64,000 nt of DNA from NCBI GenBank assembly GCA_964187785.1, contig OZ076409.1:18416001-18480000 (forward strand). The letters run 5' to 3'. The translations under genes were made by a program, and so were the position numbers. The DNA is from Amphiscolops sp. MND2022. Taxonomy: Eukaryota. Under the pieces are notes generated by a model. It was not told the origin of the DNA. It did no database searches and saw only the letters and a program-made list of their open reading frames with translations. Positions 874-55,300 of the stretch are shown here, in pieces. Position 1 is the stretch's first letter. Each line of letters starts with the position of its first letter.

Positions 874-1115
874 GGTAAATGGTCACTTGGCTTAATGCCA
901 TTTGGCTTGAAGTCATTTGGCTTAATACAATTGGTCACTTGGCTGAATTTTTTTAAGCTAAGTGTCTCGGGTATTGGTCACTTGGCGCAAAGTCATTTGA
1001 CTTAAAACCACTTAGTTGAAAACACGTGGCAGATTTTGTCGAATTTATCTTTATTACGTAGTCAGCGTATTATTATAACATGTCATATCAAGTACCCCTC
1101 GGATATGTCCCCATT
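874..1115 (+). mobile_element. Left arm of a type D MITE (CA(C/T)TTGGCTTAA arrays), truncated inside the shared core
   Basis: Starts GGTAAATGGTCACTTGGCTTAA, has repeated CATTTGGCTT/CACTTGGC motifs, and ends in CCTCGGATATGTCCCCATT, the first part of the shared core. Confidence 0.55.
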
Positions 1116-1325
1116 GGTTGTGATAAACTTGTTGTGATAAACTTGTTGAATAGTTTCAGACTTTTGATTGAATTGATTGATCTTCATCACATCACTGGAA
1201 GCGTTGTGCAGGACCGATCAAGGCTTTCGGGGGATCTGTGGCTCTTCTGTTGGCTTTTCTCACCAATTGGGTGGACCTATCTAGACAATTCTGTTAGTTT
1301 GTTCCAATTTCCTTATGTGATTCCT

Positions 1326-1949
1326 ATGGTTTATATAGTTGGAGCTAGCTCATTACACGTAACAGTAGAATCAACTACTTACAAATTCAGAAAAACTATT
1401 CGGAACTTCATTACCGCAATACCAGGTCTCAGTTTCTGTCACAACTCGAGACTGAAAAATTTGCAGCATCTTCTATCTCAAGGAAAACTGAAATATCAAC
1501 ATAACCTGCTCCTCTGGCACGACCTGATAAATAATACTTTATCCCCACATTCAAGCAACAATCATAAACCCTGGACCCCTCAGCAACTAGTTACGGCATT
1601 AAAACAGCAAAGTCATCGAATAACTGCAGTCATTTACTGCAGAAGATTTGGGACTGCAGATATCTTTAACCAATTACTGGCTACTGATATGCTTATAATC
1701 CGGGCTGATAAACACCTTCTATCTAACAGAAAGAGGAACAATCATTGGATTAAAACGCAACTTGCAGAAGTGCATCTCTGGGTCCGCATTGAACTGAACT
1801 TGCTACACACGGTTTTACAGCGGAGCAAAAAGCTGCAGTCAATAGTTATTCAAAACCGCTCCAGAACCAGAAAACGTAAATCCAAGAACAGATCCACTTC
1901 CGCGAGAAGGAGGAACAAAAAAGCGAAACAGGAATCTCTAACTGGGTAG
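1326..1949 (+). CDS. SGNH/GDSL-hydrolase-like protein with a basic C-terminal tail (probably element-encoded)
   Basis: From ATG 1326: VYIVGASSL (block I-like), AIPGLS (block II-like), LLWHDLINN (block III-like), EVHL (block V-like), then RSRTRKRKSKNRSTSARRRNKK. Intronless and embedded among transposons. The motifs are divergent, so the fold call is tentative. Confidence 0.5.
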   Translation: MVYIVGASSLHVTVESTTYKFRKTIRNFITAIPGLSFCHNSRLKNLQHLLSQGKLKYQHNLLLWHDLINNTLSPHSSNNHKPWTPQQLVTALKQQSHRITAVIYCRRFGTADIFNQLLATDMLIIRADKHLLSNRKRNNHWIKTQLAEVHLWVRIELNLLHTVLQRSKKLQSIVIQNRSRTRKRKSKNRSTSARRRNKKAKQESLTG

Positions 1950-3137
1950 CTATTTGAGCCTTTGTTGGTTTGGAGCGGCCCGGGGCGAGTAACCTGCTTG
2001 CTTTGAATCAAAAATGACTGGCACACGCAGTAGAAATCAATCCACCTCGGACGAAAAATGTCCGCAGTGCAAAAGTAAGGTAGCTGAAAAAGAAAAGAAC
2101 TCAATTCTTTGCAACGGTTGTTTTGAATGGTGGCACGGGACATGTGGAGGAATAGAAGTGAAAGATTTGGCAATATTGGCGAAGTACTCGGCTGTGCACT
2201 GGTACTGTCCCAAATGTGAAAACGACACTTTGCAAAAACAAGGTATGACCATCATGAAGTCCTTAAAAACGTTAAATCAATGGTATAATAATAAAAGTGA
2301 AATTCGCAAACAGGAAACTGATCTATTGATGTCAATTAAAACTGATATCGAAATCATCAAGGAAAAAACCCCCTCAGGAAACACCTATGCAGAGAAATCG
2401 CCCGAAAACCTTCGCCCTCTACGAGACAACAAACACCTCGAAACAAAGAGAAAGACTTGAGTACCATATTGATTGTCAGTGGCAATCAAAAGTATCGAGA
2501 TAGCATTGAAATTAAAAGGGCATTTTCAAAAATTTTTCCTATGAAAAAATTGATTGTAGCATTCAATACTGCTCGGGGAAACATTCACTTAAAATTCTTG
2601 AACTCTCAAGAGCCTGACGAGGTGTTCTCCAACTGGAAAGCTGATTATCTTGGAACGAAAACCAGTATACGAAAAGCTAGCGCTAGAGATGAGCAGAGAA
2701 ACGCTGTCATAAAAGGTGTTCCGAAAGAGATAGAAGAGGTTCATATTACTGAAATTCTCCAGAAGAAGTATCCTGGGATCTATGTGAAAAGATTCGTAAA
2801 AGCGGATGGAACAATTCTGCAGACAGTGAAACTGACCTTCCAGTCAGAGCTTCAATACAACAATGCACTATCTGAGGGACTCTTTTTGGATTCCGTTTAC
2901 TACCAGCCATATGCATTTGTTCAGAGAGGCATAAGATTCATTCGATGTTACAACTGCCAAAAATTCAGTCACCTTAGCGGAAACTGCCACTCCAAAACAG
3001 CCTGAATAAAAACTGTCCGAATAAATAATTAGAAAGCAAATGTATGAATTGCAAAGGGACTCACGATGCGGATTCACTTGTGTGCCCAACTTACATTAAA
3101 CAAAAACAAGTGGTTTATGACGCTCGAGGGCTAACTG

Positions 3138-5303
3138 ATGAAAATCATGATGGATGGCATGATGGCTCCTGAAAGGAGAATATCATTCTTACAGATCAAC
3201 ATTTGCGGCTTGAGTAATCACAGTAAAATTGCAATTGATGCATATCTTGAAAAACATAAACCAGATGTGGTTTTCTTGAATGAAACGAAACAACAAATTC
3301 CTGATAATGCCTTTACCAATTATACAACTCTCAGTAGTACTCCAAAGAAATCGACAGGCGGGGTTTCGTTGTTGTTTCGTAACGATGTGGCGTATGCTCA
3401 AATAGAGGAATTAGAGACCAAAAACAATGACTATATTGTGGCTGCAGCTAATGTCCGCGGCCTAAAATTACTAACTACGACTGCTTATGTAAAACCTGAT
3501 GACAAAGGTGAACTACTAGAACTCATAAAAAGACTTGAAGCCTGTAAAGTCTACGCAGATACAAATCACATGGAAGGTGTCCTTTTCTTCGGCGACTGCA
3601 ACGCCAGACACTTATACTGGGGTGATCAGAAGTGCAATGCACTTGGAAATGAGTTAATCAGCCACGTACCAACTTATACTATTTTGAACGATGGCCAACC
3701 TACTTTCCTCTCAATCAACGGTCAAAGTGTAATAGATCTTTGCATTTGCTATGGAAACTTCATTAACCAATACAAATGCTCGGTTACAACTGATGAAGAT
3801 ACAGAACTATTCACTGGAGCACCCTCCAGGGGCCACCTGCCTGTGCTAGTTTCTCTTGTCGAGTCGAAAAGTGGTTATTTCAAGGAGAAGCCGTGGATTG
3901 AGAAAGCAATGTGGGATGACTGGCGCGCACATCTAGAAACTGAAATGCTCGACTGGACAACTTCAGATAATGCTCTGGAAATGTGGGAGTTTTTCAAGAA
4001 CTCTTTAAGGGAGATCACACTACTTTTCATTCCTTTCAAAAAAGTTACCCAACATAGTAAACCATTTTGGTGCACCGAGTTAACTATAGCCAGTAAAGAG
4101 CTCAAGCAGCTGCGTCGGAACTTCCGATACAAGTCCAATTATGCAAATTTAGAAAAACTAGCAGAAGCGAAAGAATTATTCAAACGACTACTCAGTGAAA
4201 AGGCGTCTGCCTGGATGAAAGACTACTTGAAGACACTGGGACACAAACGAGGCAAAGAATTTTGGGTATCGTACAATAAACTGTTCGCTGGAAGCAGTTC
4301 CCAAGTGGATCTCATCAAGAATAAACACGGGAAACTGCTGCTCTCAAAAAAAGATATTGCTCAAGAATTCCAAGAGACCTTCTTCGAAGGAAAACATCTG
4401 GAAACTCTCAACTTCGACGAGTCAATGTCAAGGACAGTCTCAGGTTATCTGGACTCGTTTGATGATGCTTCCGAGCATGTTTCGGAAGTTTTTCATGAAC
4501 CTTTCACAATGGAAGAACTAAACGAAGCAATGAAACAATCTTCTGATACAAACTCCTTTGACCCTGACGGGTTCCACGTCAAAATGATCAAAAACTTGGG
4601 AATCAATGCGAAAACTCTTCTGTTGGAGATTTTTAATACATGTTGGGAACATGCTGTATGGCCCTGGTCTTTATCACGAATTGTGTTTATCAGGAAGCCT
4701 AACAAAGATAGATATGACGAGTGTTCCAGCTATCGACCGCTATCAATCTCTAGTCATTTTGGAAAGCTCTTTGAGCGTATGCTGTGCAATAGAATAAATT
4801 ATTTCACGGGAACCGAGAACATTCTGGCGGACGAACAAGAAGGTTTCAGAAGTAAAAGAAACACAGTCAGATCTCTGTACAGGCTACATCTTAATCTGGA
4901 AAATTCTAAATTAATGAAAACACCGACCGCTCTACTCAACATTGACCACGAAAAGGCCTTTGACAGCGTGTGGATAGATGGCCTACTTTACAAACTCAAA
5001 CATTACAAAATAAACGGTAAAATGATCTGCATTTTACGAACCTTTTTGAAGAACCGAGAAGCATTCATTGAGTTATCTGACTTCCGTTCATCTATGTCCA
5101 AAATAGACATTGGTGTCCCTCAGGGCAGTGTCTTGTCACCACTTTTGTTTGTAATTTTCTTGAACGATTTTCTGAGTGAGGAACCGTGTCACTACAAGTT
5201 CGCCGACGACAGTGCTATTTTGATTCAAGGCTGCAATGAAAATGATATCTCCCAGAAACTCGAACACTCTTGCAGGGGGTTCGAACAGTGGTGCCGCAAA
5301 TGA
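3138..5303 (+). pseudogene. LINE ORF2 endonuclease/reverse transcriptase, main open segment (continues 5307-5769, 6857-7243 and 7601-7745)
   Basis: APE and RT motifs as above. Removing the MITE at 5770-6847 restores EVKFVIKAKRANDLVSNTH, which aligns with IEIKLLIKSVNKDDLVTATH of the second LINE. Confidence 0.9.
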
Positions 5304-5769
5304 AGAATGGGAGTGAATGGCTCCAAGACAGAATTGATTGTTTTCAATGTGGAAAGAAACAACATAACTGCGCCGAGCCTGAACAATGAAGCGTGCACTA
5401 TCACAAAAGCTACAAAATCTCTCGGTCTCCTGATTGATGATAACCTGTGTTACAAAGACCACGCCGAAAAAATCTGTAACAAAGCTAAACGCAGCTGGGA
5501 TAACGCTTCTAGAATTTTGAGATGCAAATGGAGCTTGTCAATTCCAACGTTAATTTTCCTCTACACTACTATCATTGTACCGCAGCTCTTATATGCATCA
5601 GTAATATGGTTTGAAAGAAATAGAAGCTCAGTCATGAGAGTCCAGAATCATATCATCAAATCAATCTTTCGACATAGTTTTACTCCTACTATTAGCATCT
5701 GCGAAACGCTGCTAGGACTACCCCCTCTGGACATTTACAATGATGCCATAGAAGTCAAATTTGTCATCA

Positions 5770-6847
5770 TAGGGGCGGGAATAACGTCTAAGGAATAACG
5801 TCTAAAGGAATAACGTCTAAATTTTACTCATTTTTCAGGAATAACGTCTAAAGATTTAGACGTTTTTCCCGTTTTTTTAGATGTTATTCCCGATTTTGAA
5901 ATATTGTTCCTCGTGCTGAAAAATTCCTTCCCTTGCTCTAGTTTTCAGGAATGAACTATGAAATAATCGAAGGCCACGGAATACGAGCAAAAGTCTATGT
6001 GTCTGATGGGTATTTGTTCCTAAATCGAAAAAAACGTCCAAAATATCAAAAAACTATGCAAATACGTCCGAAAAAAGGAATAACGTAAAAAATCCAGAAA
6101 AACGCCCAAAATATCCGAAAGTCATCGAAATACGACTGAGAAGCGGGAAAAACAAATTGAATTGGAAAAAAATAAATTGTTTAAAATCTCAAACTAAAAA
6201 GTGATATAAAATATAAAACGTGCCTCGGATATGTCCCCATTCCTTCTAGTGCCCCGCGGCTCCTTGGGGCCGCTTATGTTCCCATCTTGCTAAGCGAGGT
6301 CGAACAGGAGCAAAGACCTAGCGGGAACGGAGATCGCGAAGCGATCGTAGTGGGAGCTGGTCTTTGCGACGGTGAGGGAGAGCGTGCATACACCGCATAT
6401 GCCCCACATTTTGATATTTTCGCTTTCAGAAAGCCTTTTTCGAAACAGGAATAACGTCTGAAACTTCAGACGCTAGTCTCAAAAAATGATTTATTTTAGA
6501 CGTTATTCCCGTTTTGTATTTAGATGTTGTTCCTCAGACGTTCTTCCCGCTGCCACGTATTTTGATGATTTTTTGACGTTTTAGACGTTTTTGCCAATTT
6601 TAGACGTTATTCCCGTTTTTCAGACGTATTTTGATCGTTTTTTGACATTTTAAACGTATGTCAGTTTTAGACGTTATTCCTCTTTTTAGACGTTATTCCT
6701 CTTTTTAGACGTTATTCCACTTTTTAGACGTTATTCCCGTTTTTTTAAACGTTATTCCCGTTCATTTCAGATTTACATGTTATTCCTTTAGACGTTATTC
6801 CCGGTGGACTTTTAGACGTTATTCCTTAGACGTTATTCCTGTTCCCC
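5770..6847. mobile_element. Foldback/MULE-like MITE, type B (GGAATAACGTCTAA arrays), with the shared core at ~6217-6410
   Basis: TSD TTGTCATCA at 5761-5769 and 6848-6856. Termini GGGGCGGGAATAACGTCTAA and (rc) GGGGAACAGGAATAACGTCTAA. Many tandem TTAGACGTTATTCC copies at 6500-6840. Confidence 0.85.
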
Positions 6848-7243: not shown

Positions 7244-7591
7244 GGGTGGGCGGAAGTAGGTCGAAGGAACGGGATCGAAAATCAGAGTTAGTCCTCAGGT
7301 CGACATACCAAATTTTTGAATGGGATCGAAACAACTCGGATCGAAATTTTTATTACGTAATCAGATATGTTCACTTACCCCTAGTGCCCTGAAAGCAGGA
7401 GCGAAGCGAAGCGGAGCGACGTGCCATATGGCCATGCCTCAATGTTGCTACTTGGCGAAGGGAGCGAAGCGACCGAGCCATACAACAAATACGATTAAAT
7501 TCGACCGCATTCCATTCGATCCTGCAATTCGATCAAAACGATCGACCTCTGTCCTTTCGACCAGAAAAATTCGACCTACTTACAGCCACCC
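7244..7591 (+). mobile_element. MULE-like MITE, type E (~350 bp, TCGA-rich arms, GCGAAGC-rich core)
   Basis: 9-bp TSD GAAAGTCAG at 7235-7243 and 7592-7600. TIRs GGGTGGGCGGAAGTAGGTCGAA and (rc) GGGTGGCTGTAAGTAGGTCGAA. Near-identical copy at 11613-11962. Confidence 0.9.
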
Positions 7592-7775
7592 GAAAGTCAG
7601 AAGACAATCTCTATATCACTATTTCTTCTGCTGTCCGCACTATAACGAGATACGCCCAGACATACAGAGCCTAAATTTAATGGAAGCGACTGGTTGTCAG
7701 AAACTCCGAGATTTCATAATGAATACAAATAAACTGAACTTATAGACTATTGACCTATCATTAACATCCTCCCGC

Positions 7776-7975: not shown

Positions 7976-10930
7976 GATAAGTGTCCGAATCGACGAGAGC
8001 GCTGATGGTAGGACAGTTTCCCAGTCAGTTAGTGGGAGGTTTGTGGAGTGTAGCAGGCACTGAACTGCTTTCCACACAATTCCGTTGTAGCGCTCGTTTT
8101 GGCCATTGCCCTGAGGGTGGTGAGGCGTAGTTTTGGAGGTCGCAACTCCATTTTGGCGGCAGAAGTTTTGGAATTCCGATGAGACGAACTGTGTGCCCCG
8201 GTCAGAGTGAATGAACCCAGGTGTTCCGAAGATAGCGAAAAGTGTTGAAAGACACTTGATGACGCTACTAGACGTGATGTTCCGGAGAGGGAAGGCGAAG
8301 GGAAACCTACTAAACTCATCCACCACTGTGAGAAGGTATTGGTTTTTGTTTCTAAACATTGGTTTGGGGCCAACAATGTCGATTGATAGTCGCTCCCAAG
8401 GTTTGGAGGATCGAATAAGATCGCTGCCGGGGGGTCGCAAAAAGCGTGGTTTCCATAGAGCCTACGTTTTGCAGTTTTCGGTAACCCTTTTTGCCTCATC
8501 TAAAGATATTGGGACTTTGTGTCTTTGAATGTATTCGTACAGTCGGGTCTCTCCTGGATGCGCAAGTGTCTCGTGTAGGGTTTTACAGCTGGGCTGTAGG
8601 GACGCTAATTGAGACAGGGCGTCAGCTGACAAGTTCTGACAACCTCTCTGGTAGCTTATCTCAAAGTTGTATTCCGAAAGTTCCAGGCGCCAGCGAATCA
8701 GCTCGTCATTCTTTACTCTGGAAGAGTTGGGTCCAAATATGAAAGAGAGGGCCATTTGATCGGTGCGAACTAGAACCCGTGACGTCCGTAACAGGTCTGA
8801 GAAACGGCGGAAGCCATCCAAGATAGCCATAGCTTCCCGTTCAACCACCGAGTACGCCATTTCGCTATGTTTAAGAGTTCTCGAGAAGAAACCGACAGGT
8901 TTGTCGTTTTGAGTGAGTGTCGCTCCGATTCCGTTTCCGAATGCATCGGTTTGGAGAACGAGAGGCTCGTTTGCCCGGGGCAGCCAGAGTACGGCAGAGG
9001 TAACTTCTTTCTTGAGAGTTGCTGTAGCCAGCCGAGAAGCTTGATTGAGCGGAAAGGCCAGTTGTTTCTGTGCTGCGAGCAGGGGAGCAACCTTATTAGA
9101 GTAGTCTGCAATCCACTTTGCGTTGTACGCAAAGAACCTAAAAGGCGTTTCAACTGTGACGAGTTTTCGGAGATAGGGAAATCCATCAGTGTCTTGATTC
9201 GGCTCGGATCGGGGCGTTTAGACTCAGCTCCCTCGTTGTGACCGAGCATTGGTACTGTCTTACAGCCAAAAACGCACTTAGCTTTGTTCAGTGTCAGACC
9301 CTCAATCTCGGCCGCTTTCAGGAAGTTCTTCAGATTTTCTTGGTGTTCCTCCTCGGATCTGCCTCCGATGATCACATCGTCAAGATATGGGTGCCGTTCG
9401 CTTCAGGTTGTGCCGGCGTACAAAGGCTGTCATTTCTCGTTGAAATGCGGCTACAGCGTTCGACGCCGAAGGGAAGTCTTGTGAACTCAAAAAGTCGTCC
9501 GTTCACTTCAAACGCGGTGAATGACATGTCCTTGCGATGGAGGGGGATTTGATGATACGCAGACTTCAAATCGATTTTCGAAAATATAGTGTTCTCGGCT
9601 GCTTGGTCAAGCAGATCTTGCATATTTGGAAAGAGGAAGGCGTCCTTGGACGTATGACGATTAATTTTCTGAGAATAGTCGATCACCATCCATGGCTTGG
9701 GTCCGTCCCTAACGACAAAGGCTTGAGCCCGCCAGCAGGGAGACGTGGAAACTTGGATTATGCCTTCAGCGAGCATTCGGTTAACTTCTCACTCCATGAA
9801 GGCGACGTCTTGCGGTTTGTGACCACGCGATTTTGTAGCAATCGGTTTGGCACTATAAACTGTTTTGGAAAGTATGGTCGGAGGGGCAATTTTCATCGCC
9901 GGGAACTCCAATTCCTTGAGCCAGGCAGATATAACCGTCTCTGGTCGATCACCGCCTAATTCCAGTCTCACAGAGTGATGTTGTCGGAGAACGTCAAGCC
10001 CGAGATTAACTACCGCTACGAGGTGTTTTGCGACAGTGAAGAGAACTTGGTAGGTCTTTTGGTTTACCTCAATTTTAACTTTAGCGGTGCCTGGCGTAAT
10101 CAGAGAGTCGCTATTTGCCAAGGCAGTGACCTTGCGCTTCGCGCGGACATTCACGCCATATTCGGCAGCTGTTGAGGCGCTGATAAAGGAGCCCGTGGAC
10201 CCGGTATCAATCATTGCTTGAACTTGTTCATTGCTTCCGGCAAGTTTGAGGCTGACATTCAGAGTGGCAGGGGATATGCCAGTACCGCACAAAACAGCGG
10301 CAGTCTCGGGTTCATCATCAGATGACTGTTGTAAGACAGCAGCGGTCGATCTACATACCGAAGCCCAGTGTCCTGCTTTCGAGCATTTGTGACAGGTGTC
10401 CTTTTCGGCTGGGCACTTTGAGCGTGGATACTGTTTCAGACCGCAGAACTGACAGCGTGGACGAGGCTTGTTCGAAACCTGTTGGGCAGCGGAGTTGTTG
10501 GGCCAATCAGGTTGCCGTCGAGTTGTCTGGGAGAACGGCTTGGTCGCTGCTACAGTTGAAGATTCGGCACTTCTGAAAGATTTGAAAAAATCACTGGATT
10601 GTTCGATAGCAGAAGCAAGCGATATGCAGCTATCAATGTCGGCCTTGGAGTCTTCCAGTTCCAATAGTCTTGCCCGAATGTCGTCAGACCTGAGCCCTGA
10701 TATTAAAGCGTCTCGTACTAGATAGTCTTTTGTGCTTGGACGGTCAAGCTGGTGCATTCGCAGTCTTCAACCAGACGTTTCAGCCTTCCTGAAAATTGTA
10801 CGATAGATTCGTCGTCCTTTTGACTGGCACTGAGCCTTTGATGACGGGCAAAGAGCACTCTCGTGGGCTTCAGAAACTGTCTGTCCAATGTTCTCAGGGC
10901 GTCAGAAGAGGGAATACAGCGCATAGACAA
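7976..10930 (-). mobile_element. Ty3/Gypsy LTR retrotransposon internal region (gag-PR-RT-RH-IN), frameshifted and 5'-truncated
   Basis: Gag knuckle CHKCSKAGHWASVC; protease IDTGS; RT KIDLKSAYHQI, LPFG, PYLDDV; RNase H YSVVEREAMAI...RTDQ; integrase HETLAHPG..CKT, DIVGP, SDRGTQF, GQNER. Domain order RT-RH-IN is Gypsy-type. Confidence 0.9.
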
Positions 10931-10932
10931 AT

Positions 10933-11058
10933 GCTACGAGGAACTTAAGAAAGTACCGTTGTAGCAGAATCAGGCGGTAGCTACGAGGAACTTAAGGAAG
11001 TACCGTAGTAGCGGAATGGTCGATAGCTACGAGGAACTTAAAGAAGTACCGTAGTAGC
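10933..11058. repeat. Three 33-bp hairpin-forming direct repeats separated by 14- and 13-nt non-identical spacers
   Basis: GCTACGAGGAACTTAARRAAGTACCGTWGTAGC at 10933-10965, 10980-11012 and 11026-11058. Spacers are AGAATCAGGCGGTA and GGAATGGTCGATA. Confidence 0.9.
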
Positions 11059-12027
11059 TCAAATAGGAAAGTCGCATACCTGAAGACAGGTTCAGCCTAC
11101 GTGACTTAGCGCGGGCAGGCGCAATGACCTCGAGGGCACTCGTATGTTCGGGGGTGACCTTGTTTGTCTGGGGGCAGAAGGCTTTCCGAAGTACTCGATT
11201 CTTCAAGATGGAGCGAATTCCACTAATGGCCCTAGGCTCTAGGTGGATGTCGTCTCGGGTAGTGTGTTTTTCGACGCTGTAGATGCTTCGAGATATGCCT
11301 CTGTAAGGCCAACGGTGATCGTTGTTGTCTTCTAGGAGTCGATTGAAGACCTTGGCCTGGTCAGGAATGTCTAGCCGAGGAGGAACCGCAATAACGAAGA
11401 CTCTGAGTGCAACTTCAGATGCTGCTACGGCAAGGTCAGAGATGTTCCTGGCAATAGTTCGAGTGTTGTCGGTTGGTAAGTCGTTGCCTCCGATGAAGAG
11501 TACAATCAGATCAAACCGACCTTTCGCAGGTAAGAAAAGTCTCACGTCTCCAACTCGGGCCCCTGGTAGGACGAGAATATTGAAGTTAGGGAACGTCAGG
11601 TTCCTTCCTTGTGGGTGGCTGTAAATAGGTCGTATTTTTCTGGTCGAAAGGACAGAGGTCGAACCTTTTGATCGAATTGCAGGGATCGAATGGAAAGCGG
11701 TCGAATTTTATCGTAATTGTTGTATGGCTCGGTCGCTTCGCTCCCTTCGCCAAGTAGCAACATTGAGGCATGGCCATATGGCACGTCGCTCCGCTTCGCT
11801 TCGCTCCTGCATTCAGGGCACTAGGGGTATGTGAACATATCAGACTACGTTATAAAAATTTCGATCCGAGTTGTTTCGATCCCATTCAAAAAATTTGGTA
11901 TGTCGACATGGGGACTAACTCTGATTTTTGGTCCCGTTCCTTCGACTTACTTCCGCCCACCCCTTCCTTGTGAATCAGTAATAATCAGGTTACGAGTGGG
12001 CGAGGTCTTGAAGAGGTGATAACGCAT
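11027..12027 (-). pseudogene. SGNH/GDSL esterase ORF split by a type E MITE
   Basis: Excising 11613-11962 plus one TSD copy gives an in-frame MRYHLFKTSPTRNLIITDSQGRNLTFPNFNILVLPGARVGDVRLFLPAKGRFDLIVLFIGGND...RDDIHL. All four SGNH blocks are present (TDS, PGA, GGND, DDIH). Confidence 0.8.
11613..11962 (-). mobile_element. MULE-like MITE, type E (second full copy)
   Basis: 9-bp TSD CTTCCTTGT at 11604-11612 and 11963-11971. Reverse-complement match to 7244-7591. Confidence 0.9.
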
Positions 12028-12033
12028 GAGGAG

Positions 12034-12188
12034 TATCGAATAGAATTGGCGTGGGGGAAAACAATACTTGCAGGAAGTTTCTATTCGATGTATACTTCAG
12101 ATGAAAGCTTATCGAATAGAAACTTCCTGCAAGTAGTGTTTTCCCCCACGACACTTCTATTCGATAAGCAATCATCTGAAGTATACAT
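12034..12188. repeat. Nested, overlapping inverted repeats (two alternative long hairpins)
   Basis: 12034-12089 matches the reverse complement of 12111-12166 at 53/56 positions. 12088-12121 matches the reverse complement of 12155-12188 at 32/34 positions. Confidence 0.9.
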
Positions 12189-12297
12189 ACAACAATTAGG
12201 TTAACATAAATAACACAACGACATTATATAACAGTATTAATAACTAACTACATATATATAACTGCATCAACGTGGATACGTAATCAACTAGAGCAGC

Positions 12298-14902
12298 TTG
12301 GGCACAAAAAAGGTAGAGAATTCTGGAAATGTCATAAGAGACTATTCAAAGATAAGTTTGAGAATATTGGCATTGTCAGTAACAAAAATGGCGAGCTTTT
12401 GTGCGATCCAATGTCCATTTCACAAGAATTTCGCAACACTTTTTTCGAAGGCAGGCATCTTGAAGGAAACGATTTCCATGACTGGCAACCAACTGTTGAT
12501 TACACTATACCTGAGTTATGTCATGAACTTGACCGTGATTTTAGTATGGTCGAACTAAATGAAGCCTTGAAAAATTGCAGATCTTCTTCATTTGACAATG
12601 ACATGATTCATGTTACCATGTTGAAAAAACTGGGAGCCAACATGAAAAATTTATTGCTCTTCATGTTCAACACACGTTGGATCACATCCACATGGCCTTG
12701 GAACATATCTAGGATCACTCTTATAAAAAAGCCGGGAAAGAAATCCTACAAACAATGCTCCAGCTATAGACCATTATCTATTTCTAGCCATGTTGGAAAG
12801 TTATTTGAGAGAATGATTTCTGCTAGACTGAAGCTTTACTTCGAAACTCACAATATCCTTGATGAAGAACAAGAAGGTTTCAGTACTCATCGGAGCACTA
12901 CCCGTTCTTTGTATCGTATGCATCTCGTATAAGAGGAAGCAAAGCGTTCGAAAAAGCCGACTGCACTACTGAATATTAATCTGGAAAAGGCCTTTGATAG
13001 TATTTGGGTCCAAGGACTGCTTTATAAACTTGAATCGGTGAATTTGCCCCACAGGCTGCTTTGTATCATATCATCCTTTCTTAGCAATCGGAAGGGATTC
13101 ATTGATATCAATGGCCATTACACTGAACTTTTCGATATTAATGTTGGTCTCCCCCAAGGCAGTGTGCTTTCCCCTCTTCTTTTTATTTTTTACCTCAGTG
13201 ACTTCTTATCCGAAGTCGAGGTAAAGTTCAAATTTGCAGATGACAGCTCGGCTATCATCTCTGCTTTTAACACAGATACCTTACATTCAGCTCTACAAGC
13301 TATTTGTCATAATATAGAGTTTTGGTGCAAAAAGTGGAGAATGGTAGTTAATGGGTTTAAAACTGAGCTACTTCTTTTGAATTGCTTCGCTGACAACACT
13401 CAGCCAATCCTTCTCAACGGGGAGCGATGCAAGACGAAGCAAACTACTAAATCTCTGGGCTTAACTATAGACACTAACCTCACCTATAGAGAGCACACGT
13501 CTATTACGGCCTCGAAAGCTTTAACTAGCTGGAGGCTGCTTAAGAGTAAATGCTCTAACAGGTGGGGCCTCAGTATACCAACACGAGCCTATTTGTATAA
13601 AACCATAATCAGACCACAGTTAATATATGCGGAGCCGATATGGGCCCAAAGAAACTATGCAGGCCTACAGGTTGTACAAAATCGAATCATTCGCTCCATA
13701 ATGAAACACAGCATGTCTCCAAAGATAACAGCTATTGAAGTGTTGATGGGGATTCCTCCTTTAGACATTTATTGTTCTTCAATTGAAATAAAACTTTTGA
13801 TCAAATCAGTGAATAAAGATGATTTAGTTACCGCGACGCATGTCAAAACATTGACTAGACCCAGTAGTCTCTCCGGGTTCCGGACGTTTCGGCACAAGAC
13901 GTTTCGGCAACAAGATGGCGGAAGACGTTTCGGCAACTTTTTGTTGCCGAAACGTCTTTGGTGCCGAAACGTCTTCACAGCAGGTGAAAGACGTTTCGGC
14001 AACATTTTGTGACTTTTTTTGACTTCTTAAGAATAAATTTTTACTTTTCGTGAATGTCTCGCAAAATTTTCAGTACTTTCCCCTTCTAATGTGGGGGCAT
14101 ATTCGGTGTATTCACGCTCGCCCTCACCGTCGCAAAGACCAGCTCCCACTACGATCGCTTCGCGATCTCCGTTTCCGCTAGGTCTTTGCTCCTGTTCGAC
14201 CTCGCTTAGCAAGATGGGAATATAAGCGGCCCCAAGGGGCCGCGGGGCACTAGAGGAAATGGGGACATATATGGGGCACGTTTCATACTAAAGAAAACTA
14301 CAGATTATTCTTCTTGTTGCCGAAACGTCTTTGGTGCCGAAACGTCTTCACAGCAGGTGAAAGACGTTTCGGCAACATTTTGTTGCCGAAACGTCTTCCG
14401 CCATCTTGTTGCCGAAACGTCTTGTGCCGAAACGTCTTGTTCCCGTCTCTCCTCCCTTCTCCTAAGCAAACTGAGAAGATTTGAAAGAACTCATATGTCT
14501 CATTCTTACACTCGAGACTCCATCAATGCCTTCATCAGGGATAATTGGAACCGCAGATGGAACAGTCCGTATAATGACAATTTCCTCAGGAATTTCATTT
14601 CCAACTTGCCACAAGAAACGATTCATTCACCTTTACTGGACGGAAACCCTTTGATTGCCAATATGATAAGCGATCTTCTCATCGGAAGCTCACGAAGATT
14701 AGCTGAAAATTTATGGAAACTGAGCTGCACACCATCGCCCATGTGTCTTTGTGGAACGTCAGAGCAGAACAGCTACCACTATTTCTTCTATTGTCCAAAT
14801 TATTGTAATTTCAGACCCTTTCATCTCAATTCTCTTGATTTTTTCCTCTCTGATGACTGTGCCATTATTAGAAATTTCATCTCCGGTACAAATATTTTTT
14901 AA
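12298..14902 (+). mobile_element. 5'-truncated LINE ORF2 (RT + C-terminal CCHC), related to the LINE at 2014-7745; interrupted by a type C MITE
   Basis: Begins LGHKKGREFW (cf. LGHKRGKEFW). Motifs YRPLSISSHVGKLFER, GLPQGSVLSP, FADD and CLCG...YHYFFYC. Nonsense TAA at 12930-12932. Confidence 0.9.
13875..14444. mobile_element. Foldback/MULE-like MITE, type C (GACGTTTCGGCA arrays), with the shared core inverted at ~14088-14283
   Basis: 8-bp TSD GTCTCTCC at 13867-13874 and 14445-14452. Termini GGGTTCCGGACGTTTCGGC and (rc) GGGAACAAGACGTTTCGGC. Removal restores TRPSSLSSLLLSKLRRFERT. Confidence 0.85.
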
Positions 14903-14913
14903 TGAACTGAAAC

Positions 14914-15149
14914 GGGTGGCTATGAATAGGTCGAATTTTTTTGGTTGAAAGGACTGAGGTCGAACCTTTTGATCGAATTACAGGGATCGAATGGAATGCG
15001 GTCGAATTTTATCGTATTTGTTGTATGGCTCGGTCGCTTCGCTCCCTTCGCCAAGAAGCAACATTGAGGCATGGCCATATGGCACGTCGCTTCGCTTCGC
15101 TCCTGCATTCAGGGCACTAGGGGTATGTGAACATATCTGACTACGTTAT
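14914..15149 (-). mobile_element. Truncated type E MITE
   Basis: Matches 11613-~11850 from the GGGTGGCT terminus through the GCGAAGC core. The other arm is missing. Confidence 0.8.
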
Positions 15150-15578: not shown

Positions 15579-18500
15579 ATGTTTCACAATGCTCAGCGAC
15601 CTAAAGACGGAGAATACACAAAGACAATATACGACCTGATCAAAGATCAACGTTATGCAGAGGTTGTAAAGATTTTGTCGGCGGAGTTGAATCAAAATTG
15701 CAGATCTCGCGCAGCATTATCTATTTTGGGATATTGCACCTATCAGATGCAGCACTACGAAGAAGCTGCTGTGTATTATCAGCGTTTGGTTGACCTGTGC
15801 CCTAACAATGAGCATTATGTGATGTATTTGGCCCAATCGCAGTATAAGTCATGCCAATATCAGGAGGCTATGAATAGTGGTGCGTAATTTTTGCTGCAAT
15901 AAATATTCAGTGTCGGTTTCATTGAGCTGACTCGACCTCCGAATATCTAACTGATTTTCGACAATCAAAACTAGTCAGTTGTTTAAATTGATATTCCGAG
16001 GTTTTAAATGAAGTTCCTGGAGAAAAGTTTCACCTCAGGTTATAGTTGTGTATAATGCGATGGGTTCATACGGAGAACCCGTTCAATTTTCCATAACCCT
16101 TCTGTAAGTTAACTGGGGCGTAGGAGCAAAAAAAATGTGATCAATTAGAGGTAACCAAATTTACCATGACTGAAAAAATTACATTGCTATTCCATTCAAT
16201 GACGAAATTTGAAAGCTCAGTTCTAAGGTGATTTACAATGCCTTAACGTTTACAGCTGTTCAATTGGATGATGCTAATTCTGAGTTTGCGGACAGCGTAA
16301 AGAAACTGCAGGCTGCTATCAAGTATGGCGAGGGAGAGATTCAAGCGGCCAAAAGTCTCGTGGATCAAAGCTCAAGCGGAGATGCTGATAAGCATGTCAA
16401 TTATGGCTGCATACTTTACAAGGTAGTGTTTTGTTTTATTACGTGTCTACATATCTTAATCTTCGATTTTTGCCGAGTTCTTGTTCCAAGTTCACTGAAG
16501 TTACAAGTAGGGAGTCTCGTTCAACATACAGTACAACTCATACAGTAAAATTCGCTTGTATCTAACCCTCATTGGCTTTAAAAATTGGCATCATCCAGTT
16601 AATTCTGATTTATCCTCTTACTGTTTTCTTCGGTCCCTTGTGGCATGTTATGGAGGCAGATCCCGTCTTACCTCGGATATAACGCCAAAAACTTGGATAG
16701 TATTGAAAAAATTATTGGTGGATATACAGTCGAACTCGGATAAAAGAAACATTCGGACATAAGAAACGTTTTTACACCTCCGCTTTTATGCAAGACAAAC
16801 TTTCCGCGTTAATAAGGCAACTGATAAAAGAAACTATGGATAAAAGAAACTCTTTTCTTACCGCCCTATGTGTTTCTTTTATCAGAGTTGGACTGTATAT
16901 TGAGAAAGCAGAGTTTCAGACGAAAATGAGAATTTTGACAGTCTCATAGTGCCGAAAAATCTAAAAGGGCTTTTTGGATCTTTGGGCTTTTTAAACATTG
17001 GAAAATTTTTGAAAAAAAGTCTCACAGAGCCGAAAAATGGAAAGGGGACTTTAGTCTCGTCCGGTGTTGTATGTTACGTTAAAATAGAATGAACGAATGA
17101 CCCTTTGCGCTAACTTCGATGCGTTTCTGCTGGCCGGTCCAGTAGTTTAGTAGTTTCTGTAAAAGTGTCCACTACGCATACATTCTGGTATCTGACGAAT
17201 TAAGCTTGCCACTGTAACAGCCGCGATCATTTTCTACTAAAATACCGCGACTAAAAAGACCTTTGCGAACCAGGGTGAACTTTGGCTCTGCTGCACTGCG
17301 AACATGGTTTAATTTCTTTGAATTACAGGAGGGTAAATACGAAGAAGCACTGAAACACTTCTTGGACGCTCACAACATTCAAGGTTTCAAGCCCGATCTT
17401 AGCTACAACATTGCCCTCTGTTACTACAAGAAGACAGATTATGCCCAATCGTTGAGGTATTTGTCTGAGATCATTGAACGAGGAATCAAAGATCACCCTG
17501 AGCTGAGTGTGGGAATGGCCACTGAAGGATTGGAAATTCGAAGTGTCGGCAATACCTTGGCTCTTCAGGTGAGACATGAACAATATGTATGGCCCTAATA
17601 TGGTCGTTGACCCTGATTCATTTTTTTAGTCTTATATTTTCCAGCGTTTTTATAGTGTTCTGATTGAAAGAAGCAATAGGCTTAAGGCTCAAAAGCCGAA
17701 TCTGATGAAAAGTAAATTACGTGTGACGACGGCTGGTATTTTTGAACTTCGTGTGTAATTCATACAATTTCATCGAATGATCAGTAAAATGCATATACGA
17801 ATAAAATCCTGTTTCGTTTTTACATTTTTTTTTCAATTTCATGATTCTTAGCAAGAAAATCTGCATTATAAGGATCAATTTGTTCATGAGCTGCTTTGAG
17901 ATGAAGACTTTTTCTGCATTGTCCGCTGTTTCGATCGGGAATAATTATGATGCTATTCTTTCAGGAAACTGCTCTGGTTGAAGGCTTCAACCTGAAAGCA
18001 GCTATAGAATTTAGACTGCGCAACAACGAGGGGGCAGTCGAGGCCTTGACCGATATGCCGCCCAGGTCAGAAGAGGAGCTTGACCCTGTGACCTTGCACA
18101 ACCAGGCGCTGATTAACTTCGAGAGCGAGCCCACTGCCGGTTTCGAGAAGTTCCAGTTTCTCATACAGCAGTCTGACTTTCCCCCAGAAACCTTCGCCAA
18201 TCTACTCATTATGTATGTCAAGTATGATTACCTTGACTTGGCCGCTGATCTGCTGGCCGAGAATAATGATATCCTGACCCAGAAGGTAAATTGGCAAAGT
18301 AGTTTTTTTGAGCTTTGTCTTCGCTGAGCATTTTTGGCGATTGCTGTGCAGCGTCGAATTATGTAGGATCCAAAATGAAGCAAAATCATGTAGGATTGAA
18401 TCGTGACTTGATTTTGTCTAAGATCGAAAGTTTAAATTTCAAATATTACACCATACCTTTAGTGCCCTAAATGCAGAAGCGAAGCGAGGTGCCACTACTT

Positions 18501-31600: not shown

Positions 31601-31936
31601 GATGCTTGCAACCTCTGCATGATATCACAGACAAGCGTGAAAACGCTAAAGTTTTTTAGTCAGTAATATCGTGTCTCAATTTCGAGGGAAATGAAGAGAA
31701 AACGTACTGATAGAAAAACGGAAAATGCTTTTTAATTCCAGAATAGGATGAGTTTAAACTCATAATTCTTTGGCTCGCCTACGAACTTCGAGGCACAAGT
31801 CATTTGAGAAATTTATTTTAATTTTTCAATATTAATTTGGCTACGAAATGTACGAAATCAGCTGCAGGGCATCGTTTTTAACGAATTCGTTATGAAGGTT
31901 CTATAGAAATACCGTGAAATTTGAATTTAACCGACA

Positions 31937-32080
31937 ATAAAACAAGGCAATAATTAAATCAGTCACTTAATGATAAGGTCTCGGGGAAGGTCGTCGGTTT
32001 AAAATTCCGAATTTTCTACCGATGACCTTCCCCGAGATCTTATCATTGAAGTGACTGATTAATATTTTGCCTCAATTTAT
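31937..32080. repeat. ~145-bp imperfect palindrome (hairpin MITE-like)
   Basis: ATCAGTCACTT-AATGATAAG-GTCTCGGGGAAGGTC-GTCGGT pairs with ACCGA-TGACCTTCCCCGAGA-TCTTATCATT-GAAGTGACTGAT. Confidence 0.75.
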
Positions 32081-33199
32081 TCGCGATGTTCGTTGAACTT
32101 CGTTCGTGATGTTCGTTCACAAGTCGTTTAACTTTCACCTCGTTGGTTTTCTCGAGATGCTTTTCCAGAATTCCAAAACACGTCTCGAATCAAACTCGGA
32201 TTACACCACACGGAAAATATAATTCTGCCATACGTTACGATCCGTACGGTCATCCATTGACTCCCAATCTTCAATACAAATTGCTGAATTGTAGGATAAT
32301 TGTCACCTTCCAAGGCCATTTTTCAACCAGCATAAAAACTTCACCATCGGCTTCTAATGAAATGACGACTTGTTTAAGGAAAAGTTTGTCAAGGTAATTC
32401 AGATGTTCTGTGAGAAGTCCGATGCATTCGATTATTCGCTAGAATTAGGGTAGAAAGACTACATATAGTCGCAAACTACAATTTTACCATTCTAATAGAT
32501 GATACAAGTTTCATCAACCTGTCTCCAGAGCATGCAACTACATGGGGGGGAACTAAAGGTCAAATATAGAAATACAATTATTTTGATTTAAGGTATACAT
32601 TTTTATTGCTCTAAAATACCCCTCAAAGCTGAGCCCTATCAACCGAACAAGGTTCATCTCCTTGAAAAAAATGGAAATGATGATTGAGCAGAAATGAAGA
32701 CAGGAGAAATGAAGAAAACTGGAAATGTGGCTGCTCATTCAAGCTTTGTTTTGGAGCCTTTCCAATGTGGCATACGAAGTGATGGAATTTGCGCTTGATA
32801 AAGAGTGGAATTTAATTTGAAGTCCTACAAACTCGCATGCAATGGGCTGAGTAAATTTTGAGTGAACACCAATGAAACTCAATGAAAGATGTGGTACATT
32901 TAAAAGAATTGAGTCAAGAGTTAAGAATTGGGAAATTATGCACCTGAATCGTTTCTAAAGAAACCATCACATTCATTTGAAATCTACAACAATAACTGAA
33001 ACTTCGAAAACAAATTTTCGGCACGAGGACAAATCAGGCGTTGCAAAGGTAGTGTATCAAATACAAGGGACAAGTTGGTTATCTAAAACAAAATGTAACA
33101 TCCAAATTCAATCAAAATTAAAAGCTATAAGCAAACAGTTGGTATTCAACGGGCACTATCGACATAACCATTACAAACAACGAAACAAGAATGCCATGT

Positions 33200-49394: not shown

Positions 49395-52300
49395 CTAGAG
49401 CAGTCGAGAATACTTGGAGCTCTCTTCGTCAAATGAGCTGACTTTGCAGTCGGTCTGTCTCTTCATCTGACAGAACCACTCATTGAACTCGTCTCCGAAC
49501 TGGCTGTTGAGGTCTACGTCACTCTCGAAGGCATCCACCGCCTCTGAAAGGTTCAAGGGCAGAAGTTCCGCGTTGGGGTTGTCACCTGTCATCAGAGGGG
49601 GCTCTTGTTTCTTCCTCAAACCGTCCATGCCTGCCGCTACTATCCCTGTAACATTTATGATATTCTACCGTAGTTGTTCTCAAAAAAGGTTTTGACAAAA
49701 GTAGACCAAAAGAGCGAGGAAAACCTCAATTTTGACCTAAATTTGGCTAAAAATGGCCAATGATAAATTTCACAAGTTTCATCGCATAATTTTCAAACGA
49801 ACAATTTGTAAACTAGATAAAATCGAAGAAACTTACTTTTACCATTTTTCGAAAATCACTGCCGTTTTTGAGATATTCAAATTTGAGATTTTCCTCATGT
49901 TGCTTTTTCTATAATCACCACTGCAGTTGTAAAATTTTAGGTGAATCAACTTGTGATCAGTTTTCACTGAACCTGGTTTGACCAAGACATCGGTAGTTCT
50001 TCAGAGTTCTGAAATATCGGTGTCAACGTAAATATTGATCAACATCCAATATATGTTTGAAAGTATTGTAGTTTCGCTGGTTAATACGACCAATTTCGAG
50101 TTGCCTATTTTATTCTCTTGTATCTTTGTACAAAACTATTGTGATATTGAATGTGTAGTAAATAAGTTCTTTTTGAGTTTGTTTATCAACAACTCGCTTC
50201 TATGCTAAATCGAAACTAGGTAGAGACCAGGACGGATTAAACCTATTTTATAAAACCATGTCTTTTCTTAATTTAGCCTGAGAATGTAACTGTTATACGG
50301 TGTAATACCGCGTCCGAATTTATTCTGTTCATCATGTGCCAATCAAACTGAGAGACAATCTGTTGACCAACAAACTCAAGTTCCATATTTATGTTGATAC
50401 ATATTTATATACATATATGTATAATTAGATTAGTGTTGTTCGGAACCATTGTTGGATAGAAAGTACATAGAATAAAGATTGGAAAAAGAGATTCATTAGA
50501 TTTGCAATTCGTTTTTATTATACCAAGTTGGAAATAGAACATGGCGCAGTCAGCAGTCTAATTTATCCGAAATTTTACCGAAACAAAGAAACAATGACAC
50601 AAGAAGCAACACAAATTGAAGTGCCGAACTTCGAAGCAACAACAGACGGGAAGAAAATCTTTACACCGAAACAATGGTTGGAAAGATTCCGGCAAAATAC
50701 GAAAAGAAAATACAAAATGGATATTGCGGAACTAATCCGGGGAGTAGAAATGACGCAAAACGAATGGGACACAAAAGAAAACCAAATACAAGATGACTTT
50801 ATATGGGGTATCGGCCCGGAAGCCTTATACCAAATGACAAGAGCAGAATACAAGACCGACCCGAACAAAATCGCGATTAAAGACTTAATTCGGTTATTCA
50901 ATGAATACTTTTTACCGAAAAGAAACACATACCATAACTGCGGAGAATTCTTCTGGACCAAACAGACCGAAGCCGAGACACCGGAAGATTTTTGGCGGAG
51001 ACTGATAGAAATCGAAAAAGAATGTAATTTCGAGAGCATAACAGCCGAAGAATTACTCATATCAAAATTCATGACCGCAAAAACGGACAAGAAACTTCAG
51101 GACAAATTAATGAAAGAAAAGAAACCCGAGATGAAGAAAACGATAGAGATGATCAAGCAAAATACATATGAGAAGAAAAACAACAAAACTACAATACCGG
51201 AAGCATTAATATCAAACCGAGAAAAAGAAATCAAAGAAGAACCAATACAAAGAATGGACAAATTCAATTCCCGACCGAGAAAGACATTCAACAATAACAG
51301 ACCTTGTAGATTCTGCAATGCACCGAACTGGAATACAACGCACAAATGCCCAGCACTCGACCAGACATGTAATAATTGCGGAAAGAAGGGCCATTTTGCA
51401 CGGTCATGCAGACAAAGAGAAAACTAGAAAAACAAATTACGGAATGTAACCGAAACCAAGAATTCAATTGGCGAAGAAAGCGACGAATCAGAAACGAGCG
51501 TACACAGAATCGAAAGAGTAAACAGAATTATTGACAGAAACAAATACTTGACGACAATAGTGAAAATCAACGGAACGGAAAAGGAATTTGTAATAGACAC
51601 CGGCTCACCCATATCAATAATGCCGGCGGACAATACAATAATGAAAGAATCCGAAATTCAAAAAGTGAGACACCGGTGCCAAGATGTAAACAAGAACGAA
51701 GTGAAATTCCGGGGGAAAATACCGGTAAATATTGAATACGAAAACAACAAACAGAAAATGCAATTACTGATTACCGAACGAAATGACATAACACCACTAC
51801 TCGGAATGGACTGGTTAAAAAAATTTAAACTAACAATCGGAAACATCCAATTGGACGAGAACGATCAATCGGAAAAGAGAAGAGTAATAGAAAAATTTCC
51901 GGACCTATTCCGAAACAACACGACCATAAAAGATACCGAAATAAATATTCAACTGAAACCGGGCATTACCCGGTAAAACAAAAAGCAAGACCAATCCCTT
52001 TACATTTACAAGAAGCAGTCGGAAAAGAAATTGAAAAACTAATGGAATCCGGACATCTAGAAAAAGTAAAACACGTAGATGAAGATTGCTTTATATCACC
52101 GGTGGTAATAACGGTCAAAAACGACAAGTCGGTAAAAATAGCATTAGACTCCCGAAAATTAAATGACAGCTGTATTAAAGTCCGACCACACATGCCGAAC
52201 ATGGAAGAACTGTTGAACCAGATTTCGGTAGAGATAACTAAAGACCGAACGAAAGAACTGAGAATGTCAAAGATAGACCTGGACTATGCCTACGGTCAAA

Positions 52301-55300
52301 TGATGTTATCCGAAGAAACGAGTAGACAATGTGTCTTCGCAATTACCGGAGGAAATTTAAGCGGATATTACCGATTCAAAAGGGGATTTTACGGTTTAGC
52401 CGATGTACCCACAATCTTCCAAGAAAAAATCGACAGAACATTAGAATAGTGTACACCTGCGTGGTTAGACGATATAATAGTGGTCACACGAGGAGACCGA
52501 GAAGACCACGAAAAGAAACTTTTCGATGTACTGAAAAAACTGGAAGACGCCGGGTATAGAGCAAGTGAAAGAAAATCTGAATTCTTCAAAAATAAAATGA
52601 AATGGCTCGGACATGAAATTGACGAAAACGGAATAAAACCGAACAAAAAAGTCAAAGCCATATTGGAATTGAAACACCCGGAAAATCCGAAACAACTAAA
52701 ATCTTTTCTCGGGGCTATACAAAATTTGGCAAAATTCTTACCAAAATTGTCAGACAGAACCGACAGATTACGAAAATTACTGAAGAAAAACACAGAATGG
52801 AGATGAGAAACGGAACAACAAAATGATTTTTAAACAATAAAGAAAATGTTAACCGAAGAACCGGCTTTAGCACATTACGCAAAAGATAGAGACAATATCG
52901 TTACAACGGATGCAAGCAAAACCGGTCTCGGAATAACTTTATGGCAAAGACAAGCTGACGGGGAATTAAAACCGATAGCATTCGGTAGCAGATTTCTTAA
53001 TGATAGTGAAAAGAACTACTCAATCGGAGAATTAGAATTGCTAGCAGTTGTTTGGGGATTAGAAAAATTCCGTTTCTATTTATACGGGAAAAAGGTGTTT
53101 CTATACACCGACCATCAAGCATTAGAACCGCTGATCAAACGGAACAGATGTAACAAACAATACAGTGCTAGACTTACCAGATGTTTAGACCGATTAGCGC
53201 ACTTTGACATCTCAATACAACATATAGCCGGAAGCAGTTTCAAAGTTACTGATTTTCTCTGCCGAAATCCGGTAGAGGGCGCCGCGACTGAAAACGTCTA
53301 TGATGAACAATACGTAATAAACATCTTAACCGAACAAGCCGAACTGAATTTGAAATACGGCAGAATATTCACGAACCAATCACAACGAACGCCGAACAAC
53401 GAAATTACGCGCGAGCGCAAACCGAACAACCAATCAGAAACGAATAGAACATTCGAGAAGAAACGACACGTGAACAAAACAAACGAACAAGCGGAAACCA
53501 GTCCAAACAAAACCGCGATAAAATTCAAACGTCACGCGCAAAGTTACCGGTACTAAATTGCAAAGAGTTACCATTATCGACATCTGAAGAAATGGACCGA
53601 GAATACTTCCATTGGGGAGCAACAACAGAAATAATGGAAATTATTCAAAGAAGAGAGAAAAGCACGGAAACACGGAGATTGGTGGACAGACGGCTAGAAA
53701 TAGCCAGACCGGGAATGATGAGAAGGCGTTATGACCAAAACGCACAAAGAACGATTTGGGTCCCGTCACGACCCAATAAAAGAAGCCGAGAAGAGATAGC
53801 CGAAATAGACGGAGCGCTCTACAACGCGCAAACAGACTGGGGGGAGGCTATCGGCCAATCCAAGAAGAAGAAAATGAACCGGAACAATTTGAAATGGAAG
53901 AGCAACCGCCGGAAGAACGAATGAACGACTCGGAGAGCGAAGGAGAAAGCCAAATTATCCGCGGAGATATTTTACCGATCGTCGACCTAAAAAGTTACAA
54001 CACCGAAGGAAAAGAAGCGCACTACGTGCAAATCAATCAAATTATCGGAGTAGTCACCGAAGGAAAGAAAGCAACGGAAGAAACCATTAAGAAAGCGGAA
54101 ATGGATTTCATGCTGGATTTAAAGAATCTGGTTGCAAAATCAACAACAGACGCGGAGTTAAATCGAGTTAAACTGGCACTAAATAGAGAAGACCGCAACA
54201 TGGCGCCAGAACACTACCGACCACACTTCGAGAACATCTCATCAAAATGGGGGCTAACGTTCCTAAACGACAAAATAGTGGTACCGACCGAACTTCGAAA
54301 AAAGTTACTGGATACACTACATTTTGGACATGCAGGAACCACCAAAATGATAGCCGAAGCGAAAATTTTCTGGTGGCCAAACATAAACAAGGACATTGAA
54401 GAAAAAGTCAAAAATTGCATAGCCTGCCTATCATCCGGTAAGAATTTAAAATATCAAATACCGAAAAATGAAAACGGAAAACTAAAAATACTAACCGAAC
54501 CGGGCCAAGAAATCCAAATTGATTTTACCGGAAAACTACACAACAAAAAATTAAACGGAGAAAGCCAATTACTAATTGCGATAGATAGATTTAGTAAATG
54601 GCCGACCGTAAAAATATGCAAAACTACCGAAACAAAAGAAGTATTAATTTTCTTAACGCAAAATTTTAATTTGTACGGATTACCGGAGAAAATCAAATCG
54701 GATAAAGGCGGAGCATTTATCTCAAAAGAGTACATCGAATTCTGCAAGTCGAAAAACATTGAGATAGAATACTGCACACCGAGACTACATACCGGTACGG
54801 GAGCAGTAGAACGCGCAATACAAACAATAAAGAACTTAATACTGGCCAATTTAGAAGATAATTTATGCTTGACCGAATGCGTAAATAGAGCGTTAAAAGT
54901 AATGCGATTTACAATACACACCGGATTAAAACTTACACCATTTGAATTACATCACTGTAGAAAACCGCGAACCGAATTAACCAATCTGGTTAAAGACGGA
55001 AAGTCATTCCTATCTGATTGGACCGAACTATCTGTTTCAGCTGAGAAAAAACCAAAGATACCAATTTACGTATCAAGGAACGAGGAGGGAGATGTTACCA
55101 ACTATTTGATCATGGCAAAAACCAAAACCGAAGAAAAAGCGATGGACAAACCGAAAAAGAAAAATTCGGTTAGTGAGTACCCTTTTAATTTCGTAGAAAA
55201 GAATCATAATAGAAAATCACTAGAAGGGAGATTCCAGAAGAAAATACAAACCGCGGTAAGCGGAACCGAACATACTGTAACCACCGAGAGTGGGAAGTTA

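Follow-up and report, generated by a model that had tools for sequence, protein, structure and literature searches.

A decayed stand-alone SGNH esterase gene with a His/Cys tail, likely an internal fragment of a BEL/Pao LTR

Several kinds of mobile element have acquired esterases, among them LINEs, Ngaro, Penelope-like elements, Helitrons and LTR elements of rotifers. Vesta LTR retrotransposons of bdelloid rotifers carry a separate, catalytically intact GDSL ORF3 that has neither a transmembrane nor a coiled-coil segment and for which an auxiliary or membrane role has been proposed (PMC5408684). Esterases are also found in ORF1 of CR1, L2 and RTEX retrotransposons and in Penelope-like elements; one example, that of ZfL2-1 (PDB 4c1b), has hydrolytic activity and an affinity for acidic phospholipids and for liposomes (PMC3905857). 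In amphibian Ngaro elements, an SGNH ORF lies ahead of split direct repeats, in overlap with the recombinase ORF (PMC9210276), and the Texim SGNH genes are carried by fish Helitrons (PMC4021074). Additional ORFs of LTR elements have been placed in the internal region (PMC7264820). The word 'Esterase' does not occur in the available text of a BEL/Pao survey (PMC3118150), and our literature search found no esterase in BEL/Pao elements and no enzyme ORF within an LTR; Repbase and Dfam, which lay outside its scope, may hold such families.

The window analysed here, a stretch of 64,000 nucleotides from Amphiscolops sp. MND2022, contains a decayed copy of a stand-alone SGNH gene with a His/Cys tail, which is probably an internal fragment of a BEL/Pao LTR. 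As in Vesta, this would be an LTR element with a separate SGNH/GDSL ORF whose catalytic residues are intact and which lacks transmembrane and coiled-coil segments. However, the Vesta ORF3 is internal and about 1.3 kb long, whereas the esterase gene here is about 0.6 kb, encodes a Cys tail and, in a related contig (L001), lies after BEL/Pao pol, flanked by a purine tract on one side and a primer site on the other. Esterases of the ZfL2-1 type share the SGNH fold and the intact active site and are the source of our lipid-binding analogy, but they form one domain of a multi-domain ORF1 ahead of ORF2, while the protein here stands alone and ends in the His/Cys tail. The residue before block III is F here, and the transposon-specific His of the ZfL2-1 type (H191) was found in none of 32 rows, the position having been mapped by inference from the residue numbers in PMC3905857. 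Ngaro elements likewise have an extra SGNH ORF near the element end, but the recombinase overlap and split repeats are not seen here: upstream frames are closed and split direct repeats absent in the window, and L001 has neither feature. Texim is also a multi-copy SGNH gene spread by a transposon, but it is a captured host-type gene with a Helitron carrier, and neither a Helitron Rep/helicase nor Helitron termini lie beside the ORF in L001 or in the window, where the ends of the copy are lost. The unit and its neighbours are made up as follows.

7976..10903, minus strand: Gypsy gag C-terminus, protease, RT, RNase H plus integrase; a neighbour, probably outside the unit
10905..10932, minus strand: family sequence past the array; the C-terminal read-through of P0011 matches 10943-10905, and a gag-like frame comes next
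10933..11058, minus strand: three weak hairpin units of 33 bp with a period of 46-47, copy number variable in the family
11106..11168, minus strand: stretch encoding the His/Cys tail, here shifted in frame, matching the natural ends of P0002, P0003, P0004 and P0006
11160..11603, minus strand: main part of the SGNH ORF with blocks II, III and V (match to Lipase_GDSL_2 of Pfam at E 0.005, which falls short of the curated cut-off)
11604..11971, no strand: MITE insertion including its target duplication (MITE 11613-11962, 350 bp; 9-bp target duplication)
11972..12027, minus strand: start of the SGNH ORF and block I with the catalytic Ser; Met and N-terminus as in intact copies
12034-12188, no strand: nested palindrome, made of the family's single short hairpin region and an inverted extra copy at about 12088-12166
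12189..12263, minus strand: AT-rich upstream sequence, common with the P0045 locus to about 12202
12264..14913 (3' limit approximate), plus strand: 5'-truncated LINE that carries its own MITE; a neighbour outside the unit

A sequence-only reading of the window had proposed that removing a MITE restores an esterase ORF with its ATG at 12027. Both pieces of the ORF, on either side of a MITE that inserted after block I, indeed have counterparts in natural proteins that are intact, for example P0002 (93% identity over the 150-aa piece used as query). This MITE has a 94.6% twin at about 7244-7591 with a 9-bp duplication of its own and a partial copy at 14914-15149, and from the duplication length we infer that it is Mutator-like. 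Intact copies of the window family have the window's start Met, the SGNH blocks and the His/Cys end, and at 188 aa they correct the proposed length of ~200 aa. In the window copy, a frameshift near 11160 puts the His/Cys tail out of frame; the alternative-frame tail with its stop at 11106-11108, which had been noticed earlier, turned out to be the true C-terminal end of intact copies. The tail is retained in P0021 at 56% identity.

Structural modeling of intact P0002 (pLDDT 93) gave an SGNH fold, with a best structural match at Z 16.8 (rmsd 2.1 Å, 157 residues aligned) and nearly all of the top 50 matches being SGNH-type esterases or their kin. All four catalytic blocks are present, as had been claimed. 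Of 307 proteins, 156 are near full length (near-duplicates included), and of these, 152 have the catalytic S, 146 the G, 148 the N, 146 the D and 147 the H. Although the Pfam scores of the window and L001 ORFs fall below curated cut-offs, the modeled fold together with the Ser, Gly, Asn and Asp-x-x-His blocks assigns the family to the SGNH/GDSL hydrolase superfamily, and hydrolytic activity is predicted. A C-x(n)-C-x-C tail is present in 97 of the 156; fold matches barely cover that of P0002 (residues 167-188), and judging by its motif the tail may bind zinc.

The same fold is what would be expected if the ORF were the ordinary ORF1 esterase of a CR1/L2/RTEX LINE, and the ZfL2-1 esterase 4c1b ranks 19 among the Foldseek matches. 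However, the conserved Met lies 18 residues before block I, leaving no coiled coil or other N-terminal domain, and profile A2 had no 4c1b match at E up to 10. Furthermore, neither the window nor L001 has an APE-RT after the ORF, and the neighbouring LINE lies upstream on the opposite strand. This explanation, which would have overturned the sequence-only reading, is largely refuted.

With the unbroken 150-aa window piece as query, 32 proteins matched among 109 candidates; a full HMMER scan gave 108 representatives, and a profile search 80 proteins among 2936 candidates. Members are mostly 100-250 aa with the same N-terminal offset, and a few long low-complexity or unrelated matches (P0114, P0150 and others) were excluded. 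P0002 represents 30 members and P0006 represents 13, on many different long contigs and with several of them truncated, as is seen when a transposon family has decayed. Between subfamilies, identity is 28-56% and proteins are about 190-210 aa. One long-branch, multi-copy clade (P0206, P0207, P0211, P0212, P0215) keeps the catalytic residues and has no Cys tail, and one intact subfamily (P0194, P0231-P0244) is found across many assemblies, only on contigs up to 5.8 kb. A search of 8000 longer candidates yielded no fused form of the esterase, a result of little weight. No relative came from scanning viral contigs at the protein level or from scans of prokaryotic genomes; the ESM Atlas returned only generic GDSL clusters, and a PDB sequence search a best match at E 0.046.

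The nested palindrome (z -11.5) ends 6 nt before the ATG, a position that the sequence-only reading had given correctly. Its order is V-R-U-R'-V'-R-U'-R'-ATG, where R and R' are inverted repeats of 9-12 bp, and its arms mismatch at 3 of 56 and 2 of 34 bases. Relatives that read through upstream of the Met have V-R-U'-ATG directly in eight of ten cases, and the window order in none of these ten. P0023 has V-R and then a deletion, sequence upstream of P0160 is unrelated, and P0045 is the only one to cover the entire region, beginning upstream of V. The inverted extra copy thus appears private to this locus, and the pattern suggests that the template was switched twice, at short inverted repeats. 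Flip/flop ends of the parvovirus kind were rejected as an explanation because relatives have the simple order. The palindrome had also been described as two-state, and here the claim weakens: as RNA, the long hairpin is more stable than the alternative (-87 against about -60 kcal/mol), so one fold is dominant and a functional switch is unlikely.

Three repeats follow the ORF, as had been noted, and none of 100 shuffles produced three matches of the 33-bp units. Their folding into hairpins is only weak (z -1.8, 6 of 200 shuffles equally good, -8 to -9 kcal/mol per unit). In a test of seven read-through proteins, P0011 contained one array unit and then post-array sequence, P0038 entered at least one unit, and P0063 apparently passed two or more; three stopped short of the array, and the distant P0079 did not match. 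The array is therefore a subfamily feature with a variable number of units. The possibility that palindrome and array would both be missing from other copies was borne out for the palindrome and not for the array, of which at least one unit is present. L001 has no such array; a short hairpin 5' of its ORF (750-766) has a core similar to the window array unit.

The unit sits in transposon-rich animal DNA. An intron-containing host gene, with its start near 15580 and exons at 15580-18290, resembles IFT70/TTC30. The description of the unit as lying between a Gypsy without a gag start and a truncated LINE was accurate, with the LINE start corrected: LINE homology sets in at 12264, on the strand opposite to the esterase ORF, and 12264-12297 thus belongs to the LINE. 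The Gypsy lies on the same strand, with the ORF directly 5' of its gag remnant, and the ORF could accordingly be an accessory gene of this Gypsy. However, there is no primer site between the gag remnant, which lacks its start, and the esterase unit. The candidate 3' LTR (a purine tract and TGTT at 7766, ~200 bp minus its MITE) shows no similarity to the unit, with the caveat that a 200-N assembly gap separates this LTR from the integrase. We consider a Gypsy accessory gene highly improbable, and the junction with gag near 10903 is probably a deletion.

Placement of the gene in a BEL/Pao element comes from L001. Three of 186 stretches passed a metagenome scan; L002 and L003 were set aside with matches of only about 50 residues, and L001 (1689 bp, 44% identical to P0002) is the sole relative with DNA context. 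Positions 1-201 of L001 encode a DUF5641 C-terminus (E 3e-8), and directly at the pol end there is a purine tract, then TGTT at 171. AT-rich DNA follows, with the only AATAAA of the contig at 298, an intact esterase ORF of 198 aa at 865-1461 and, about 80 nt past its stop, a TGGTGCCG-type primer-binding-like site at 1541, which is presumably a His-type primer site. The His assignment fits PMC4724089, and DUF5641 has been found alongside Pao/roo domains (PMC13424557; 10.1101/2022.09.05.505575). Because pol end, LTR and primer site follow one another in the order expected of an LTR pair collapsed in short-read assembly, the position of the L001 ORF suggests that it lies inside an LTR of ~1.35 kb. 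The 3' end of this putative LTR lacks CA, with AAAA-TTT before the primer site, and L001, which is one contig only, may be chimeric or represent a nested insertion.

Alternatively, the L001 ORF could occupy the env position of a BEL/Pao element as its ORF3, with a very short LTR after it. GDSL ORFs are known from this place in rotifer Vesta (PMC5408684), the L001 ORF does come after pol, and a short purine run lies past its end. However, such an LTR would have to fit into the 80 nt or so between stop and primer site, a purine tract with TGTT already stands directly at the pol end, and same-contig sister pairs (described below) would suggest two copies per element. An env-position ORF3 is very unlikely, and we favour an ORF inside the BEL/Pao LTR.

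L001 forms a clade with P0192, P0292, P0193 and P0293 (86-88% identical, support 100/99-100/100) in a tree of 47 chosen proteins plus L001, the backbone of which does not resolve relationships between clades. Direct LTR evidence is limited to this clade. The window subfamily is a separate clade, and its start, size and tail, common with the L001 clade, suggest that it too belongs in an LTR. Window DNA and L001 DNA show no similarity, and neither LTR ends nor a primer site nor any BEL gene can be seen at the window copy, both of whose ends are lost to the LINE and the deletion junction. Primer-site translations were found in none of 187 proteins, two faint read-through candidates of P0079 being excluded. 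The earlier proposal of an accessory esterase in an LTR is supported for a BEL/Pao element, by the order in L001, and not for the adjacent Gypsy, whose candidate LTR is unrelated.

Same-contig pairs served as a test for paired LTRs, 'same contig' here meaning contigs of equal size (8 shared sizes among 199 proteins of known contig size). In the wider clade of L001, all three pairs (P0192/P0292, P0193/P0293 and P0179/P0185) are mutual nearest neighbours, as expected of paired LTRs, and P0193 and P0293, on a 46.6-kb contig, are 98% identical with one truncation in common. These pairs are known from their proteins alone, and tandem duplication could mimic the pattern. In the window subfamily, two pairs could be tested, and neither consists of nearest neighbours (their ranks being 33/8 and 11/37); one further pair has too little overlap, and another is a split copy. 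P0266/P0267, from another clade, are not nearest neighbours. Exclusive shared residues among 43 window-family proteins did not single out same-contig pairs, which a star-like burst would hide.

The window subfamily may travel on some other carrier, either as an esterase-only non-autonomous unit, as the sequence-only reading had also proposed, or in an element of roughly 5 kb (another LTR lineage, a Penelope-like element, Ngaro, Helitron or a small DNA virus). In that case, the L001 clade would represent a single capture by a BEL LTR. Esterases do move between element types (PMC5408684, PMC9210276, PMC3905857, PMC4021074). The 15 listed members of the P0194 cluster (22 members) are all intact and all on contigs of at most 5788 bp, which is short for a BEL element plus a 1.35-kb LTR, and one member of the cluster occurs on 46 contigs. 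Members of the P0200 cluster are confined to contigs of 785-1083 bp, and P0021, the sister of the window family, is on a 4496-bp contig. The short contigs of the P0194 and P0200 clusters may reflect a different carrier; however, collapsed repeats would also give short contigs. Moreover, no recombinase, Rep or RT adjoins the ORF in the window, the viral contig scans yielded no relative, and the start, length and tail common to the clades fit one genomic slot. We regard another carrier as unlikely but as the main rival, and continue with the BEL/Pao LTR.

Taken together, the data may describe a deeply branched BEL/Pao lineage with a catalytically intact, zinc-tailed SGNH esterase inside its LTR, maybe in place of an envelope and maybe splice-switched against gag-pol, a combination to which we give slightly less than even weight. 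The esterase would be an accessory, membrane-acting protein of the element. L001 has a single AATAAA, and since this lies upstream of the ORF, the ORF would be in U5. It would thus come before any other ORF on the genomic RNA, preceding both the primer site and gag-pol. ORFs within retroviral LTRs, such as MMTV sag and the overlapping HIV nef, are non-enzymatic and lie in U3. Both cases have coding sequence within a terminal repeat, whereas here the product has an enzyme fold, the position would be U5 and the carrier would be an invertebrate retrotransposon.

An ORF borne by an LTR would be present in each of the two LTRs after copying and would persist in solo LTRs, and we propose that the many ORF-only copies arose in this way. 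Hydrolysis of lipids or O-acyl groups could aid particles that assemble on or cross membranes, by analogy with ZfL2-1 and the rotifer GDSL ORF3, and zinc might be held by the His/Cys tail, again by analogy only. In L001, GTAAGT occurs at 807 and 1500 and an acceptor-like stretch ends near 1529, so that these sites flank the ORF in the putative LTR; speculatively, splicing could use them to skip the ORF. At the window locus, later accidents would include the MITE, the frameshift, the template-switch inversion at short inverted repeats that formed the palindrome, the LINE insertion and the deletion joining the unit to the Gypsy gag. If this picture is true, each insertion carries two esterase copies, and each solo LTR is a ready promoter-plus-enzyme cassette, seeding many enzyme genes across the genome. 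A stand-alone 188-aa enzyme with intact natural copies also makes the substrate of transposon esterases directly testable.

The window contains several other elements. A second, near-complete Gypsy at 50291-56172 has 251-bp LTRs (96% identical), a primer site and a purine tract, and its coding strand is very A-biased, with an AT skew of up to 0.48. A LINE with endonuclease and RT at 1062-5798, 47% identical to the LINE at 12264, is preceded by ORFs of 295 and 219 aa, neither with a Pfam match. Rfam gave 17 matches in the window, all below the gathering score and mostly to hairpin miRNA models, with no ribozyme among them, and a hammerhead core sought by eye was not found. The MITE inside the LINE next to the esterase unit (13874-14445) has long, internally repeated inverted ends and kindred pieces at 220-436 and 6212-6431, and a 147-bp palindrome at 31936-32081 is 83% self-complementary.
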